A stretch of 64,000 nt of DNA from Bacillota bacterium (GCA_029008005.1 JAQXIX010000026.1:3870-67869), one strand, 5' to 3'. Counted from the stretch's first letter, positions 18,237-31,851 are shown. Translations and numbers: made by a program. Notes: generated by a model not told the origin, from the sequence alone.

Positions 18237-19202
18237 TCAGTAAGAAAAAATCTTTTTTATATGCCATTCCGTAATATACTTTTCAATTATTTCAAGAGCA
18301 TTGAAGTCATCTATGATTTCAATGCTTTTGTCATTGTTCAGAACATTATGGAATTGCTTAGTGCATGAATTTCTAGCGTCCTTCGGAGAGCAGTCCCACC
18401 ACTGTCGAAAGGCGTGATAAAAATATTTAGGGTCTGAGAAACCTACGGAGTAGGCAATTTCGCAGTTGGGTAAATCGGTTTCAAGCAGCAGGTGGTGTGC
18501 GCGGAAACAACGAACATATTTGACCATGGAACTGAAGCTTTTGAAAACAGTTGTAGTCAGGAACTGAGAAAAATAATTGTAGTTAAGATGCTCTCTCTCG
18601 GCTAGGTCGGAAGCGGAGATTTTGCTTCTGTAATTTTTCATGCAGTATGTGAATAAGCTGTAGAATCTGTCACGGAGTTCAGGATTAATGTATTCATCGT
18701 GATTGTTGTAATTGTACCAGTCAAAGTACTTTAGCAGAATATCTTTAAGTCTTGTTTCGGATGCTTTGCGGCCCGGATTGTCCTTATTGCCGAACTGCGA
18801 CGCAGCGAGAGCGAGAATAATATCCTTGACGGAATTCATGGCCTCTTGCTGATATGGGAAAAGGTGAGTACCCTCGCAGGTGAACATAACAGGCTCGCCG
18901 TTAATGAAGCACGAATCGCTCCTGCTTAAATCAAGATGAAATATAAGAAGAAGATTATCCTCCCCCGAAGCATTTGAAATATAGTGGATTTCGTTGGCAT
19001 CAACGGAAAATACACAGTCTTCCGTCAGTGTCACTTTCTGTTCTCCGGTAACAAGAAAAACACATCCCCGCAGACAGTAAACAAGTTCGAGGGATGTCTT
19101 GTGAAAATGGGGAAGTGTGTGGCTGATTCTGCAAAGGCGTGATTCGGATAAAAAACCTTCGCGGTATATTACTTTTTCTTCTCTTACCAGATTCTTTTTC
19201 AT
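18237..19202 (-). CDS. AraC-family transcriptional regulator (N-terminal cupin)
   Basis: Cupin HFH..LE...H and the AraC HTH IAYSVGFSDPKYFYHAFR; divergent from the dehydrogenase gene. Confidence 0.88.
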   Translation of the reverse strand: MKKNLVREEKVIYREGFLSESRLCRISHTLPHFHKTSLELVYCLRGCVFLVTGEQKVTLTEDCVFSVDANEIHYISNASGEDNLLLIFHLDLSRSDSCFINGEPVMFTCEGTHLFPYQQEAMNSVKDIILALAASQFGNKDNPGRKASETRLKDILLKYFDWYNYNNHDEYINPELRDRFYSLFTYCMKNYRSKISASDLAEREHLNYNYFSQFLTTTVFKSFSSMVKYVRCFRAHHLLLETDLPNCEIAYSVGFSDPKYFYHAFRQWWDCSPKDARNSCTKQFHNVLNNDKSIEIIDDFNALEIIEKYITEWHIKKIFSY

Positions 19203-19208
19203 GGTTCT

Positions 19209-19237
19209 ATGATACAATATCATCAAAAAGTAGTCAA
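19209..19237 (-). promoter_or_regulatory. sigmaA promoter for araC (leaderless-type)
   Basis: On the minus strand, TTGACT-17-TATCAT-6 nt-ATG. Confidence 0.6.
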
Positions 19238-19348
19238 ATTACAGATTTATCATGTGAATTTATACAAAAAACGGCTACTGTTTATATAGGGTTAGAGGGT
19301 AATAATGGATATAGCGATAATTCAAAGCAAAAGAATAGAGGTGAAATT

Positions 19349-20641
19349 ATGATGAAGGTACTCGTTTTAGGTGTAGGCGCACAGGGAAGTGCGGCAGCCA
19401 GAAGATTAGACGAAGAACCTGAAGTGAATGAAATCGTGTGTGCAGATTATGATGCAAAGGCAGTAGAAAGCCTGGTTGCGCAGCTGAAAAAAGGCAGAGG
19501 CGTTCAGGTTGATGCACATAATCTCGAAAGTATTATCAAGGCGGCAGAGGGTGTTGATCTTATTATTAACGGACTGCCTCTTGAGTGCACCGAAAATGTT
19601 CTCGAAGCAGCATTGGCAGTAAAGGCACATTATCAGGATTATGCGGGAACAATTTCTCTTTATGAAAAATGGCTTAACAGCGAAGAAAGAAAAGAACATC
19701 CGGAAGAACCGGATGTGGAAAATCTCGGCACATTAAACTGGTACAGGAGCCTTTGCGCTATGTATTACATTTACGGACCGAAGTTCGAGAAGATTAACAG
19801 ACTCTGTCTCTTCGGAACGGGATCGGCACCGGGACTTATCTGTGCGGCAACAAAGAAATCAATGAGATATCTTGACAGCTGTGAGACTATATATAATTTC
19901 GTCTGGGAAGGCGTTACAGCTAAACGCTTCCAGCCTTTCTGGTGGTCGCCGGTTACGGCACTGACTGATATGAGCGAGATGGCTATTGCTGTTGAAGACG
20001 GTAAGCTGATAAACACACCGGCTTTCGGCAATGACCTGGCGAGAAAATTTGTGGAGAATGACGAACCGATAGTGTTCAGAGAACACAGCCATGACGAGCC
20101 GCTTCAGTATTTCTTCAATAAGGATACCCATTTCAAGGGGCTCAAGAACGCATATTTCAAGTATGCAGGCGCAGGAATGGATTTCGCCAAACCTATGTAC
20201 GAAGCAGGACTTCTCAGCCACGAACCGGAAATGTTCGAGGGCAGAGAGATAATTCCTTTCAAATTTATCCTGGATCACATTCCGCCGGCTCCGAAATACA
20301 GAGAAGAAATACAGGAAATAATTGATGAAGGGCTGGCTCTTGATTCCGGATGTATGGTAATTGAAGCTTACGGTAAAAAGGATGGGAAGGATATCCTTGT
20401 TGAGACACATGTAAACGCTCCGGGATTTGTTGAATCCTTTGAACGTGCCGGAATGACAGCGGAAATGTATCTGACAGGACAGGGAGGATATCTGTTCTCA
20501 AAGCTTTTCCTCGATGGATCCTTCGGGGGAATGAGCGGTGTAATCTCATCGGATATGATTACTCAGCAGCAGGTCGATAAATATTTCGAATACGCTGCTG
20601 AGCTGGGAATCACACTGGATACGGAAGTGAAAGAATTATAA
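19349..20641 (+). CDS. Saccharopine dehydrogenase/carboxynorspermidine dehydrogenase-like oxidoreductase
   Basis: Rossmann motif GVGAQG, HYQDYA, GTGSAPG and HSHDEP; SD GAGGTG. Confidence 0.8.
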   Translation: MMKVLVLGVGAQGSAAARRLDEEPEVNEIVCADYDAKAVESLVAQLKKGRGVQVDAHNLESIIKAAEGVDLIINGLPLECTENVLEAALAVKAHYQDYAGTISLYEKWLNSEERKEHPEEPDVENLGTLNWYRSLCAMYYIYGPKFEKINRLCLFGTGSAPGLICAATKKSMRYLDSCETIYNFVWEGVTAKRFQPFWWSPVTALTDMSEMAIAVEDGKLINTPAFGNDLARKFVENDEPIVFREHSHDEPLQYFFNKDTHFKGLKNAYFKYAGAGMDFAKPMYEAGLLSHEPEMFEGREIIPFKFILDHIPPAPKYREEIQEIIDEGLALDSGCMVIEAYGKKDGKDILVETHVNAPGFVESFERAGMTAEMYLTGQGGYLFSKLFLDGSFGGMSGVISSDMITQQQVDKYFEYAAELGITLDTEVKEL

Positions 20642-26698: not shown

Positions 26699-26745
26699 AA
26701 TAAAAAACTGCACTATTATTGTGAATAATAGTGCAGTTTTTTATT
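26699..26745 (+). terminator. Rho-independent terminator after htpG
   Basis: 22-bp perfect stem AATAAAAAACTGCACTATTATT-GTG-AATAATAGTGCAGTTTTTTATT. Confidence 0.85.
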
Positions 26746-26764
26746 ATAATGAATTAAGATGTTC

Positions 26765-26793
26765 TTGAAATCGGTGAAATTAGATAATATATT
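26765..26793 (+). promoter_or_regulatory. Putative sigmaA promoter of HTH-ligase copy 1
   Basis: TTGAAA-17-TATATT, the same layout as the copy 2 promoter. Confidence 0.6.
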
Positions 26794-26832: not shown

Positions 26833-28674
26833 ATGAAAACTGTTTTTGGTACAAAATTAAAAAGCCTGCTCGATGAAAAAGGCGTAACTATGAATAATTT
26901 AGCTTCAAAAACGAATATAAGCTATAACATGATAAAGAAATACTGTAACGGAGAGGCGGAACCGACTGTAGGATATGCGGTGAAGATTGCAGAAACGCTG
27001 GAAGTCTCGGTAGACAGTCTTATGGATTATGAACCTGAAAACAAAATGTTTAATAAAGTGTTCGAGAAAGATTTTACGTTTATTGAAGGATTCAGAAGGA
27101 TTGTAAGGAAATTCAGAAATAAAATCGCTGTGATAGATCCTGTTTACGACGTTTCGATGACATACGGAGAACTGGATGGTGAAGCAAGCCGACTAGCCAG
27201 AGCACTCCAGCGTGTGGGCGTAAGAAAGGGAGATGTGGTGATGTATCAGATGCCGAACTGCATGGAATATATATTCTTTTACCTGGCGCCTCAAAAGCTT
27301 GGAGCTGTAAACAACCCGGCAAATCCGGCTTTTTCGCCGGCTGAAACAGCGTCATGTATTGATATGAGCAGACCGAAGGTGTTTGTATATGATTCGGGTC
27401 TTAAGGAACAGGTGTGCAAAGCTCTTGAGATTGCGGAATTTAAGCCGCAGACGGTAGTGATGACCGGCTATGGTCAGGTGCCTCGTGGACACATAGGATA
27501 CAGAGATTTTGTAGCCGGATGCATTGATTGCGAACCTGATACTGACTACGAACCGCACATGTATGATGAATGCATGAGGCTTTATACGTCTGGAACTACA
27601 GGAATGCCGAAGGGGGTTCCGCTCAATCACGTTAATGAAGTTATGACTTGTCATGACGTAATGATACATTTCCCTCTTAATTCGACAGACTCAACTATGA
27701 ACACAACACCTTGGTTTCACAGAGGCGGAATTCACATCGGAGGGCCGGCGCCGACGTTTTATGCGGGAGGAACGGTTGTAATAATGAGAAGGTTTCTTCC
27801 CAAGCTTGCCTTGAAATATGTCGAACAGTTTGGCGTGACCTTCCTGATAGGTGTGCCTTCTGTAATGAAGATGCTTGTGAGAGAACAGGAGAATTTTGAA
27901 GCGGATCTTTCGGGACTCAGAGGAATCGTGACTATGGGATCACCTTTTGAAAAGGGTGACTGCATAATGGTACAAGAAAAATTGTCTCCGAACATACTTA
28001 ACGGATACGGCACAACGGAAACCTTCTGCAATACATTCCTGAGACCTTTCGATCTTCCGGAAATGGCCGGTGCTGCCGGAAGAGCCTGTGTAGATGATGA
28101 GGTAAGAGTTGCGAAACTTACAGATGATGAAAACAGGAATCCGGATGACTGTGTTGAGCGCAACGGCACGGAACAGGGTGAGGTTATCATCAGATCTCCG
28201 AAAGCATCGTATGTTTACCTAAATAACAGAGCGGAAGAAAAAAGGAAGTTTTTCAAAGGGTGGATGTACACGGGGGATATTGCGATCTGGGACGAAGAGG
28301 GGTATATTACTATTGCGGGAAGAAAGGATGATATGATTATTTCGTCGGGAGAAAACATATATCCTCCTATAATAGAAGAAGTGCTGAATTCTCACCCGAA
28401 AGTAAATTCTTCGGCAGTTGTAGGGATACCTGACGCAATCAGAGGAGAAGCGGTTACTGCATATGTTGTTCCTGAAGATGACAGCCTGACAATCGGTGAA
28501 CTTGTAAAACATTGTAGTGAATCTGAGGTGATATCATCGCAGAAGTGTCCTAGGTACTACAGGTTTGTAGAAACACTTCCGATGACAGCAACAGGAAAAC
28601 TTCAACATTTTGCGGTAAAGAATATGGCTCTTTCGGATCAGAAAGATGGATTGCTCAAACTGGCGATGAAGTGA
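26833..28674 (+). CDS. XRE-family HTH fused to a class I adenylate-forming enzyme (acyl-CoA synthetase), copy 1
   Basis: Residues 1-67 form an XRE-type HTH. These are followed by YTSGTTGMPKG, NGYGTTET, YTGD, GRKDDMIISSGENIYP and LPMTATGKL. Confidence 0.9.
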   Translation: MKTVFGTKLKSLLDEKGVTMNNLASKTNISYNMIKKYCNGEAEPTVGYAVKIAETLEVSVDSLMDYEPENKMFNKVFEKDFTFIEGFRRIVRKFRNKIAVIDPVYDVSMTYGELDGEASRLARALQRVGVRKGDVVMYQMPNCMEYIFFYLAPQKLGAVNNPANPAFSPAETASCIDMSRPKVFVYDSGLKEQVCKALEIAEFKPQTVVMTGYGQVPRGHIGYRDFVAGCIDCEPDTDYEPHMYDECMRLYTSGTTGMPKGVPLNHVNEVMTCHDVMIHFPLNSTDSTMNTTPWFHRGGIHIGGPAPTFYAGGTVVIMRRFLPKLALKYVEQFGVTFLIGVPSVMKMLVREQENFEADLSGLRGIVTMGSPFEKGDCIMVQEKLSPNILNGYGTTETFCNTFLRPFDLPEMAGAAGRACVDDEVRVAKLTDDENRNPDDCVERNGTEQGEVIIRSPKASYVYLNNRAEEKRKFFKGWMYTGDIAIWDEEGYITIAGRKDDMIISSGENIYPPIIEEVLNSHPKVNSSAVVGIPDAIRGEAVTAYVVPEDDSLTIGELVKHCSESEVISSQKCPRYYRFVETLPMTATGKLQHFAVKNMALSDQKDGLLKLAMK

Positions 28675-28738
28675 ATTATATTTCACTTGAAAAGGCGCAA
28701 AATGCAGAATATACTGGTAATAGATGAATTTTGATTCA
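28672..28738 (+). promoter_or_regulatory. Putative promoter of copy 2, flanked by two palindromic boxes
   Basis: TTGAAA(28687)-17-TATACT(28710), with TGAAT-TATA-TTTCA at 28672-28685 and TGAAT-TTTG-ATTCA at 28725-28738. Confidence 0.6.
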
Positions 28739-28764
28739 CCATGAGGATATTAAGGGAGGATATT

Positions 28765-30615
28765 ATGGAAGCAGAAACTACATTTGGCACCAACCTCAAG
28801 AAAAAACTCGAGGAAAAAAACATCACTATGACAGCGCTCGCCAACGAAACGGGCATTACTTATAACATGATAAAGAAATACTGCAACGGCGGAGCGGATC
28901 CGACTGTAAGCTATGCTCTTAAAATTGCAAAGGCTCTGGGAGTTTCAATGGATGAGCTTCTCGGTTATGAACCAAAGAAGAACATGTTCAGAGAAGTATT
29001 CGAGAGAGACTTCACATATATTGAAGGATTCATGAGAACTGTAAGGAAATTCGGAAACAAGACGGCTGTTCTGGATCCTGCAGAAGAAAAAAGCTGGACA
29101 TACAATCAGCTGAACGAAGAAGTTAACAAGCTGGCAAGAGCCCTTCAGAAAGTCGGCGTTGTTGAAGATGATGTAGTAATGTATCAGATGCCTAACAGCC
29201 CTGCATATATTTTCAGCTATCTGGCGCCGCAGAAAATTGGAGCAGTCAACAACCCGGCCAACCCGAACTTTTCGCCGGGAGAGACGTCAGTTTGCTTCGA
29301 ACTGAGCAGACCGAAAGTGTACATATATGATGCATCCTTGCAGAACACTGCTGTAAAGGCAATTGCTGAGTCGGAATTTAAACCGCAGACAATTGTAATG
29401 GTAGGTGAAGGTGAACTTCCTGCAGGTCATATTAAGTACGAGGATTTCATATCCGGGTGTTCCGAAGAAGAGCCTGTTACGGACTTCGTCCCTCATATGT
29501 ATGATGAATGTATGAGACTGTATACTTCAGGTACAACAGGAAGACCTAAGGGAGTTCCTCTTAACAATGTTAACGAAGTTATGACTTGCCATGATGTGCT
29601 TATGCACTTCCCTATGAATTCCACAGATTCAACTATGAACACAACTCCGTGGTTCCACAGAGGAGGAATCCACTCAGGAGGACCGGCACCGACATTCTAT
29701 GCAGGCGGAACAGTTGTAATCATGAGAAAGTTTATGCCTAAGCTGGCTCTTAAGTATGTTGAACAGCATAAGGTTACATTCCTCATCGGGGTTCCTTCAA
29801 TAATGAAAATGCTTGTTAGAGAGCAGCAGCGCTATGAAGCGGATCTTTCAAGCCTCAGAGGAGTTGTTACAATGGGAGCTCCTTTTGAAAGAGCAGATTG
29901 CATAACTGTTCAGGAAGTTCTCACACCTAATATTTTCAACGGATATGGTACGACAGAAACTTTCTGGAATTCATTCCTCAGGCCATTCGATCTTCCGGAA
30001 ATGTCAGGAACGGCAGGAAGAGCTTGTACAGATGACGAGGTTCGTGTAGTAAAAGTTCTTGAATCGGGAGAAAGAGCAGAACCTGATGATCTTGCTGAAA
30101 TGAATGAAAGTGAAGTGGGTGAAGTAATTATCCGTTCACCGAAGGCATCATACTGTTATTACAAGAATCCTGAAGAAGAAGCAAACAAGTTCTACAATGG
30201 ATGGATGTACACAGGTGACCTGGCAACGTGGGATAAGAATCAGTTCATTACCATCGCAGGAAGAAGAGATGATATGATTATCTCCGGAGGAGAGAACATA
30301 TATCCTCCTATTATAGAGGAAACACTGAATACACATCCTAAAGTTGCTCAGTCAGCAATTACGGGAATACCTGATACGGTAAGAGGCGAAGCAGTAGTGG
30401 CATATATAGTTCCGGAGGATGACAGCCTTACAGTAAGTGAGCTTGTTGATTTCTGCAACAACTCGGATATGCTCTCAACATACAAGCGCCCGAGATACTA
30501 CAGATTTGTAAAGGAACTTCCGATGACAGCAACAGGTAAACTGCAGCACTTTATTGTTAAGGAAATGGCTCTTACAGATCAGGAAATGGGACAGCTTAAA
30601 TTAGCAATGAAATAG
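28765..30615 (+). CDS. XRE-family HTH fused to a class I adenylate-forming enzyme (acyl-CoA synthetase), copy 2
   Basis: Same architecture and collinear with copy 1: YTSGTTGRPKG, NGYGTTET, YTGD and LPMTATGKL. SD GGGAGG precedes ATG 28765. Confidence 0.9.
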   Translation: MEAETTFGTNLKKKLEEKNITMTALANETGITYNMIKKYCNGGADPTVSYALKIAKALGVSMDELLGYEPKKNMFREVFERDFTYIEGFMRTVRKFGNKTAVLDPAEEKSWTYNQLNEEVNKLARALQKVGVVEDDVVMYQMPNSPAYIFSYLAPQKIGAVNNPANPNFSPGETSVCFELSRPKVYIYDASLQNTAVKAIAESEFKPQTIVMVGEGELPAGHIKYEDFISGCSEEEPVTDFVPHMYDECMRLYTSGTTGRPKGVPLNNVNEVMTCHDVLMHFPMNSTDSTMNTTPWFHRGGIHSGGPAPTFYAGGTVVIMRKFMPKLALKYVEQHKVTFLIGVPSIMKMLVREQQRYEADLSSLRGVVTMGAPFERADCITVQEVLTPNIFNGYGTTETFWNSFLRPFDLPEMSGTAGRACTDDEVRVVKVLESGERAEPDDLAEMNESEVGEVIIRSPKASYCYYKNPEEEANKFYNGWMYTGDLATWDKNQFITIAGRRDDMIISGGENIYPPIIEETLNTHPKVAQSAITGIPDTVRGEAVVAYIVPEDDSLTVSELVDFCNNSDMLSTYKRPRYYRFVKELPMTATGKLQHFIVKEMALTDQEMGQLKLAMK

Positions 30616-30626
30616 GAGATGATAAA

Positions 30627-31052
30627 ATGGCATACATACATGAGCAGAGAATACAGTTCTTTGATACAGATAAGATGCAGGTGACGCATCATGCCAATTA
30701 CATACGATTTTTTGAAACAGCCAGAACGGAATATCTCAGGAGCGAAGGACTCCCTTATTCAGATATGGAGAAGGGGGACTTCCAGATTCCTGTTCTGGGA
30801 GTCGAGGCGAAGTTCAAAACCCCGTCTGTTTATGATGAACTGATAGCAATAGAATGCCGTATCGGTAAAATTGCTCCGGCATCATTTGAAGTCGAGTATG
30901 AAATAAGAAATGCCGAAACAGGAAAGGTTCACGTTACAGGGCGCAGCCGCCACGGCTTTACTGATGCAAATCTCAGACCTATACCGCTTAAAAAGAAAAA
31001 TCCTGAATTGTATAATTTCTTTATGAGACTTAGCGAACAGGATAAAAAATAA
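30627..31052 (+). CDS. Acyl-CoA thioesterase (4HBT/YbgC hot-dog family)
   Basis: DTDKMQVTHHANYIRFFETARTE motif; 11 bp after copy 2, with SD AGGAG. Confidence 0.88.
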   Translation: MAYIHEQRIQFFDTDKMQVTHHANYIRFFETARTEYLRSEGLPYSDMEKGDFQIPVLGVEAKFKTPSVYDELIAIECRIGKIAPASFEVEYEIRNAETGKVHVTGRSRHGFTDANLRPIPLKKKNPELYNFFMRLSEQDKK

Positions 31053-31119: not shown

Positions 31120-31851
31120 ATGTTAAGGGACATAAAAGCTGACATAAGAAAAACAGTAGAAGATACAGTTACCGAATTTCAGAAGGACGAAAGTGTTAAA
31201 ACAGTTTTCGGAAAACCTGAAGTAGGGTTTGTAAGCTCGGCGCATCCTTTCTACGACACGCTCTTCGCCAGAGGTGTAAACGATCACCCGAAGAAAATAT
31301 ACAGACCGGGATATACGGTCATTGTACATTATGTGCCTTATGAAGAAGGAGAAAATTCTTTTTTTGATGCGGTTAAACTTACGATGGAAATAAACGGAAA
31401 TCTGAGAAGATTTCTGTATAAGCTTGGAAGGCTTACATCCAATACATGTATACCTGTCGACTGGGACAGGTCCGAACACAGAGAAGAATGGTCCAGCAAG
31501 TTCACAGCATTCATGGCAGGAATGGGTGAGTTCGGACCGGCAGGGTCGTTCCATGTTCCCGGGGACTTCACCAGAGGTATAGCCGGAACGATAATTACAG
31601 ACGGACTTTATGCTGATAAACCGCCTGAAATGACATCTGAAATGCTCGAAGAAATGTATAAAGACATTCAGAAAGCCTGTTGTTTCAAAGGCGCTGAAGG
31701 AGTATGCTGCAGCGATGAGCTCATAAACAGCTGCCCTGCAAAGGCTATTGACCGTGACGGAATAGACAGGAAGAAATGTCAGGATTATTGCGAAAAAATT
31801 AATTCGCACACTCCGAATCCCGAAGTGTGCGGTAAATGTTTCAGTTATTAA
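31120..31851 (+). CDS. QueG/epoxyqueuosine-reductase-like Fe-S protein (divergent)
   Basis: H..PK.I, WS....A..AGMG.FG and a C-terminal Cys cluster (CPAKAI, C..YC, VCGKC). An extended -10 TGATATAAT lies upstream. Confidence 0.6.
   Translation: MLRDIKADIRKTVEDTVTEFQKDESVKTVFGKPEVGFVSSAHPFYDTLFARGVNDHPKKIYRPGYTVIVHYVPYEEGENSFFDAVKLTMEINGNLRRFLYKLGRLTSNTCIPVDWDRSEHREEWSSKFTAFMAGMGEFGPAGSFHVPGDFTRGIAGTIITDGLYADKPPEMTSEMLEEMYKDIQKACCFKGAEGVCCSDELINSCPAKAIDRDGIDRKKCQDYCEKINSHTPNPEVCGKCFSY

Follow-up and report, generated by a model that had tools for sequence, protein, structure and literature searches.

Direct fusions of an XRE-type DNA-binding head to an acyl-CoA ligase as candidate self-regulating enzymes in a Bacillota genome and its relatives

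The 64,000-nucleotide stretch of a Bacillota genome analyzed here (GCA_029008005.1 JAQXIX010000026.1:3870-67869, hereafter the window) carries two adjacent genes in which an XRE/Cro-type helix-turn-helix (HTH) head is joined directly to an acyl-CoA ligase, followed by a thioesterase gene (genes 1 to 3; Table 1). The direct fusion is confirmed as real, and comparison among relatives strongly supports self-regulation by the fused head. We propose that the fused protein, predicted to be a dimer because its operator is palindromic, would bind TGAA-N6-TTCA palindromes around its own promoter and repress its own gene until the acid substrate, as acyl-AMP or acyl-CoA, loosens binding. The ligase would convert a scavenged short- to medium-chain gut acid to acyl-CoA, a dedicated second FabF with an intact Cys-His-His set (FabF2) would use this acyl-CoA as a fatty-acid starter where FabH is lacking, and the thioesterase would drain surplus or wrong acyl-CoA. 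Taken as one chain, from a self-repressing ligase released by its ligand to the feeding of FabF2, the proposal is tentative, and we place it a little short of an even chance.

Results

A sequence-only reading of the window had described the pair as direct fusions with no cupin between head and enzyme, and open reading frame (ORF) calls and Pfam find both genes where it placed them. Each protein has HTH_3 over the cut-off, followed by AMP-binding and AMP-binding_C, and neither has a Pfam match to a cupin domain; fewer than 10 residues (about 8) lead from the head to the first helix of the family ligase (MFREVFE), by a linker that is short and variable. The two proteins are 70% identical. The argument of that reading against an assembly or frameshift artefact also holds. 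A domain-architecture search gave HTH_3, AMP-binding and AMP-binding_C in 120 of 120 homologues among the matches listed (67-76% identity, the query itself aside), in records labelled Anaerovoracaceae, Lachnospiraceae (Parasporobacterium), Oscillospiraceae and unclassified Clostridia. Of 39 fused genes, 32 have a Shine-Dalgarno match of at least 5/6 ahead of the first Met; translation from the invariant internal Met74 is ruled out, since none of the 39 has such a match there. RNA-library contigs from three libraries in two studies span the head-ligase junction of gene 2, DNA carry-over being possible, and two such contigs run from gene 2 into the thioesterase gene, which is no proof of transcription; these contigs can neither rank genes nor locate starts. 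The shared architecture, the junction-spanning contigs, the conservation of and selection on the head, and the ribosome sites rule out an artefact or read-through fusion. We took the start of gene 2 to be the Met behind AGGGAGG, while the ORF caller begins 24 nt earlier (28741).

The thioesterase noted beside the pair is of the YbgC/FadM type, as its product matches 4HBT and TIGR00051 over the cut-off (73.8 bits for the latter, threshold 68.7), and a thioesterase match lies downstream of the ligase gene in 26 of 38 loci (L021-L058). The tandem arrangement is present here as had been described, but it is a local feature: of the 17 genus genomes that have a fused gene, 2 contain two copies.

The head appears to be a working DNA reader under purifying selection. 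It belongs to HTH_3 and has the five-helix fold of XRE/Cro domains, its predicted recognition helix I[TS]YNM[IV]KKYC is kept in 119 of 121 proteins, and mean column conservation is 0.94 for that helix, compared with 0.71 over the entire head and 0.82 in the ligase. The ratio of nonsynonymous to synonymous substitution rates is 0.094 for the head and 0.044 for the ligase (14 close pairs among 38 genes, the pairs being non-independent). A fold search with the head gave only weak matches (all E >0.001), of which the top, non-significant ones are restriction-modification controller proteins.

The ligase is very probably active, judging from its motifs. Every core motif that the earlier reading had named is present in both proteins, and AMP-binding, AMP-binding_C, P-loop, TGD, hinge and catalytic Lys are all found, as in the ANL superfamily; among 121 proteins the P-loop is seen in 119, TGD in 121 and the catalytic Lys in 121. 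Among the best 25 NCBIfam matches none exceeds its own cut-off for the ligase proteins, and the MbcS model NF047394 is not among these matches for either. The single-chain model (predicted local distance difference test 77, predicted template modelling score 0.68) and the fold search gave no clue to the substrate. In databases the proteins are named 'AMP-binding protein', one winged-helix member being auto-named as a ligase plus a predicted regulator. Searching ESM Atlas with the homologue P0064 returned generic ligase clusters, one of which has HTH_3 on 23% of its 56 members; Rfam gave no match, and plasmids gave matches only below 60% identity, those listed covering the ligase part.

Further evidence for self-regulation lies in a 14-bp palindrome with the consensus TGAA(T/C)TATA(A/G)TTCA. 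With at most two mismatches it is found in the 200 nt before 32 of 40 fused genes (shuffles expect 0.24) and before 0 of 16 unfused genes, the consensus having been taken from the same data. This circularity was removed by deriving the motif afresh, leaving out one of four clades in turn: TGAA came out as the seed in every run, and 37/40 fused promoters score above 12 (shuffles 0-1.5%), the failures being loci L055 (degenerate helix), L036 (intact helix) and L056 (borderline). Among ligase-family metagenome loci without this head, a site above 14 occurs in 0 of 72 (those of 79 with the gene located and enough upstream DNA), compared with 34 of 39 fused promoters, most of which were in the training of the matrix. 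The palindrome is present across families whose neighboring genes differ completely. We consider it highly probable, from these patterns of co-occurrence, that the head binds the palindrome. L055:6997-8839 is a natural case in which the regulatory half has been lost: the recognition helix encoded by its fused gene is degenerate, and no operator precedes the gene.

Relative to the -35 box, the sites fall repeatedly at -36/-37, -15, +5 and +37/+38, with spacings of about 21, 41 and 53 bp that keep them in helical phase, the automatic promoter pick being wrong in some rows of this table of positions. Those covering the spacer and the transcription start imply repression, and the one abutting the -35 box could activate, as such a site does for restriction-modification controller proteins. 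In the window, the putative operators O1 and O2 of gene 2 are 53 bp apart, which is five helical turns. The number of promoter matches by itself does not exceed chance (8 found against 10.2 expected).

The regulon looks local. In five whole genomes all 5 perfect palindromes are located upstream of the fused gene or of an MbcS-like ligase beside it, and a wide regulon was rejected because counts at one mismatch in these genomes equal those of the reversed-pattern control (21 vs 20). A scan of the own genome (1.63 Mb), with a matrix built from other genomes and excluding this genome and its nearest relative, gave no convincing site outside the ligase locus, and the absence of the palindrome from the fab operon of this genome likewise indicates a local regulon.

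Table 1. Features of the fusion locus in the window, in window coordinates.
Feature	Coordinates	Strand	Basis
Hairpin at the end of the upstream htpG-like gene, with a weak operator-like 14-mer in its loop, 26722-26735 (matrix score 10.4)	26699..26745	.	
Gene 1 promoter: degenerate site TGAATTAAGATGTT abutting TTGAAA (-35, 26765-26770), 17 nt, TATATT (-10, 26788-26793)	26750..26793	+	
Gene 1, XRE-HTH::acyl-CoA ligase, 613 aa	26833..28674	+	ORF call, Pfam
HTH_3 domain of gene 1 (residues 9-62)	26857..27018	+	Pfam E 3.8e-10
Putative operator O1, TGAATTATATTTCA, begins on gene 1 stop codon, abuts gene 2 -35 box	28672..28685	.	score 20.6, genome rank 1
Gene 2 promoter-like site TTGAAA-17-TATACT	28687..28715	+	same layout in relatives
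Putative operator O2, TGAATTTTGATTCA, over predicted transcription start	28725..28738	.	score 15.9, genome rank 3
Gene 2, XRE-HTH::acyl-CoA ligase, 616 aa, family-typical copy	28765..30615	+	ORF call, Pfam
HTH_3 domain of gene 2 (residues 11-65)	28795..28959	+	Pfam E 1.3e-13
Predicted recognition helix of gene 2, TGITYNMIKKYC	28849-28884	+	conservation
Gene 3, YbgC/FadM-family acyl-CoA thioesterase, 141 aa, 11 nt behind gene 2	30627..31052	+	Pfam, NCBIfam

Gene 1 is likely a duplicate with a shifted substrate range and looser control, as its sequence and promoter suggest, and we predict that its product takes a larger acid. Its HIG and ETFCN replace the HSG and ETFWN of most family members, changes that we take to lie at positions lining the acyl pocket in related ligases. 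Cys for Trp after GYGTTETF together with Ile for Ser after the A4 motif is found in 4 of 121 proteins, all from the gene 1 subclade, which is small and long-branched and stands next to gene 2 in a tree of the ligase part. The best site of its promoter scores 12.7 with the held-out matrix, and no strong site lies over the predicted transcription start.

In the ligase-only tree (the first being a quick tree) the fused genes group in a single clade that also encloses five head-less genes. The latter close an acp-fabK-fabD-fabG-fabF-fabZ-fabF2 operon or follow fabF2, which indicates loss of the head upon transfer of the gene to the control of a different promoter; loci L025 and L058 face the same operon. 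The origin of the head was sought among 1.84 billion representatives, which returned fragments and chimeras of the family and multi-HTH proteins inflated by repeats. No source was found in a stand-alone regulator, and this candidate origin was rejected; the 73-aa P0130 may be free-standing or truncated. P0133 (508 aa; 2 members) has head and helix intact on a ligase fold that lacks the P-loop and the C-terminal domain, and is possibly a sensor-only form or a decaying gene.

Outside this clade the same ligase N-terminus has received other heads. In genome G638 a family ligase carries an XRE head of another kind, and BLASTP gives no alignment between the two heads. Among the 120 proteins listed in a search with the first 130 residues of the G638 protein, 7 have this second XRE, 10 a winged helix (HTH_24/HTH_11), 3 a BlaI-type domain and one a Phd/YefM-like head below the Pfam cut-off. 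In the tree (70 rows, one dropped because a pattern failed) the second-XRE proteins and the winged-helix proteins each form a supported clade of their own amid unfused proteins, while the BlaI and Phd rows stand elsewhere with weaker support. A single clade for both XRE types is rejected by the approximately unbiased test (p 1e-36), with four nested head-less rows added after the tree was seen. The BlaI fusion is found in two diverged lineages on metagenome contigs, one cluster having 269 members. The sequences therefore point to at least three, probably four and possibly five independent fusions to the same N-terminus. The accepted heads (XRE, winged helix, BlaI N-domain) all come without C-terminal dimerization parts of their own, and their independent capture points to selection for self-regulation on several occasions.

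Some of these fusions also have candidate operators. At L101:5782-9396 (G638) an MbcS-like ligase, the second-type XRE::ligase and a thioesterase form one operon, and a TGTTGA-N7-TCAACA palindrome lies over its -35 box, one of 2 perfect matches in the genome and seen at this one locus only. A BlaI-type domain is fused to a ligase of the family behind fabF2 at L125:3836-5842. For this fusion strong palindromes lie between the -10 box and the ribosome site in the near-identical L125 and L129, and not clearly in L173; L121 and L122 lie inside an operon. Two winged-helix loci have no common upstream motif. In the winged-helix fusions L119 (about 780) and L120 (about 4000) about 8 nt separate a -10-like box from the start codon, a spacing suggestive of leaderless messages.

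The link to fatty-acid synthesis comes from FabF2, a distinct subfamily separated from FabF by a split with support 100, in which the Cys-His-His motifs were seen wherever the search patterns matched. Among 121 family genomes the ligase family is present in 5 and FabF2 in 6, with all 5 shared, also where the genes are on different contigs, and among 401 genomes of the phylum the four FabF2 matches at 47% or above are all in ligase-bearing genomes. FabH over the cut-off was found in 0 of 19 genus genomes of this clade and in 11 of 44 others (Fisher p 0.025, overstated by kinship). It was likewise found in 0 of 10 further genomes with a fused gene, five of which are Lachnospiraceae with FabF and FabF2; in a draw of Lachnospiraceae, 32 of 51 have FabH. 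FabH was not found in the own genome (86% complete), and a KAS III C-domain was found in none of five genomes. The co-occurrence with FabF2 and the lack of FabH suggest priming of fatty-acid synthesis from scavenged acids, and it seems fairly probable that the ligase feeds FabF2.

The neighborhoods of the family bear on the same subject. MbcS-like ligases or acyl carrier protein (ACP) genes adjoin the gene in several lineages; for the neighbors in L039 and L042 the MbcS model NF047394 is the best match, below the cut-off. In L198 (G645), a genome without FabH, an MbcS-like ligase stands directly behind a fabZ-like gene. The own genome has on another contig (L064:13354-19651; G000:C53) the operon acp-fabK-fabD-fabG-fabF-fabZ-fabF2 with a MarR-like gene, assigned by eye. 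A TTAG-N5-CTAA palindrome lies before acp there and in L025 and L058, and is perhaps the site of the MarR-like regulator. Strict replacement of FabH by the ligase was ruled out, since ligase and FabH coexist in several genomes. BioF was not found in any of five genomes, which makes the pimelate route to biotin unlikely, and the biotin route was discarded on this ground.

Two further observations concern other parts of the window. A 243-aa Cys-rich ORF behind the thioesterase gene (31120-31851) has no Pfam match, has its own promoter-like site and is covered by RNA-library contigs; it is likely an iron-sulfur protein. At 18237-20641 an AraC-type regulator faces a saccharopine-dehydrogenase-like gene, and a similar pair of gene types stands beside unfused ligases in L010 and L011.

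Discussion

We expect that DNA binding by the fused protein would probably be gated by ligand, and for the direction of gating we lean, with less assurance, towards release rather than strengthening. Several observations weigh against the proposed chain or parts of it. On the regulatory side, L036 keeps the recognition helix and has no site (score 1.9), gene 1 of the window carries weak sites only, the fab operon of the own genome is without a site of this type, and biosynthetic supply enzymes are often repressed by their product, as in BirA and NadR. On the metabolic side, 7 of 11 FabH-bearing genus genomes also carry an unfused ligase, the family genomes G110 and G136 hold unfused ligase and FabH together, and 73 of 121 family genomes have no FabH over the cut-off, most of them also lacking this ligase. 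Three fused-clade genomes have a KAS III-like gene below the cut-off; among fusion-bearing genomes, G011 and G049 have FabF with no FabF2 found, and in G046 and G050 no FabF of any type was found. An unfused member stands in a beta-oxidation cluster at L107:311-7726 (G491), a genome with no FabF2 match at the threshold used; the cluster also holds an apparent sigma-54 activator and a gene with cyclohexanecarboxyl-CoA dehydrogenase as its best match, below the cut-off. Kin among these genomes do not count independently, and many of the genomes are incomplete.

The ligase could have a different job, namely activation of an unusual acid (alicyclic, aromatic or dicarboxylic) for a special FabF2 lipid or for breakdown. 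This is weighed independently of the regulatory alternatives, and we regard it as unlikely, though deserving of real weight. The Arg behind the A4 His is invariant (121/121 proteins), and an Arg at that position is unusual for a plain fatty-acid pocket; the nearest solved relatives in the fold search, at 22-30% identity, include feruloyl- and aryl-CoA ligases; and FabH-bearing genomes also keep ligase and FabF2. Neighboring genes argue in both directions, as the dehydrogenase-like gene in L107 and a phenylacetate-CoA-ligase-like gene adjoining L002, L037 and L040 would suit such an acid, whereas the position of the ligase gene inside or facing the core fab operon, and the ACP or MbcS-like neighbors, do not. 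BioF, missing as described above, also speaks against it.

The second alternative has the polarity of BirA: acyl-AMP or acyl-CoA would strengthen dimerization and binding, and the gene would be off when starter is sufficient. The pathway link is anabolic, as this would lead one to expect, and the acceptance of heads without C-terminal dimerization parts fits a ligase that supplies the ligand-dependent dimer. We nevertheless consider it quite unlikely, as ligase and thioesterase would be made without substrate at an idle cost, and unfused relatives adjoin LysR or AraC genes, families that are usually induced by their effectors. Published precedents divide, since fatty acids enhance promoter binding by FadD1 as described (PMC12754631), whereas the XRE-headed BzdR is described as released by its acyl-CoA (PMC4985591).

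Feedback might also be ungated, the head binding its operators so that enzyme levels stay constant and the ATP spent in a ligase-thioesterase cycle is limited. That three or more unrelated heads work on one N-terminus is easier to reconcile with this, as no tuned allostery would be needed; the short, variable linker and a regulon that is nearly always the gene itself fit as well. We hold it to be decidedly unlikely, given that a stand-alone repressor would suffice and repeated fusion suggests coupling, and that P0133, with its head kept and its ligase fold crippled, has the form that a sensor would take, decay of the gene being another possibility. That the head is structural and another factor reads the palindrome is very improbable: the weak fold matches include HppE and HEPD, whose XRE-fold parts are reportedly structural, the charge of the head is near neutral and L036 has a head without a site, but the palindrome is missing from 72/72 relatives without this head and from the degenerate-helix L055, it is kept across families with wholly different neighbors, and within the head conservation peaks in the recognition helix.

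Returning to the proposed self-repressing ligase, parts of it have precedents, and the label of a candidate new system holds only in part: self-regulation by the fused head is strongly supported, while enzyme-regulator fusions and promoter-binding acyl-CoA ligases have been published. The earlier reading knew of no characterized direct XRE-ligase fusion, and a full-text literature search, which did not extend to most subscription papers and supplementary genome tables, also gave no description of the architecture. Fusions such as BirA, NadR, PutA and RbkR form the established class of trigger enzymes, which, in the account of PMC5397151, like the proteins here combine a DNA-binding domain with an enzyme of intact active site in one chain, have operators at the promoters they regulate, and give rise to head-less orthologues through loss. 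The differences are that the enzyme here is an ANL-superfamily acyl-CoA ligase, known from its sequence, that its regulon is mostly its own gene, and that the family has gained unrelated heads repeatedly; compared with the BirA family, the catalytic part is AMP-binding and no biotin-ligase catalytic domain is present. FadD1 of Pseudomonas aeruginosa and DsfR of Burkholderia cenocepacia are fatty acyl-CoA ligases that bind promoters in response to fatty acid, described as global quorum-sensing regulators with a leucine zipper inside the AMP-binding domain (PMC12754631), in contrast to the separate N-terminal HTH and defined palindrome here. BzdR of Azoarcus has an N-terminal HTH-fold domain and an enzyme-derived domain with an acyl-CoA signal; its second domain is described as shikimate-kinase-like and effector-binding (PMC4985591), whereas Pfam finds no such domain here and the second domain is a ligase that would itself make the acyl-CoA. 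XRE-cupin regulators differ in that a cupin follows their HTH, where here the ligase begins.

For the metabolic half, MbcS of Staphylococcus aureus activates scavenged short acids as fatty-acid starters and, as described, feeds FabH and has no DNA-binding head (PMC10026030); the ligase here is of another family, and MbcS-like genes are separate neighbors. FabY of P. aeruginosa is a Cys-His-His synthase that initiates fatty-acid synthesis (PMC4549310), a catalytic set that FabF2 shares with FabY as described. FabB and FabF are reported to be able to start from acetyl-ACP (PMC8666670). One wider reading would treat the ligase family as a built-in, ligand-controlled N-terminal dimer switch and as the entry step of an undescribed FabH-free start of fatty-acid synthesis, with FabF2 elongating the acyl-CoA formed from scavenged gut acids. 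Such a switch would make nearly any DNA-binding domain attached to it into an acid sensor and so explain the independent capture of varied heads; we offer it as speculative and on present evidence unlikely.

Conclusions

The fusions described here would add adenylate-forming ligases, together with a defined operator, to the enzymes that have a built-in repressor domain. That unrelated heads were captured again and again provides an uncommon natural experiment in the origin of one-component regulators and may offer a modular acid biosensor. Cultured carriers exist in Parasporobacterium paucivorans DSM 15970 for this head and in Treponema rectale for the winged-helix head. The tie to FabF2 provides a testable answer to how fatty-acid synthesis may start in many gut and rumen anaerobes that lack FabH. 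It also provides candidate genes for the known incorporation of short-chain acids into the membrane lipids of rumen bacteria, as reported for Prevotella bryantii (PMC7709123).

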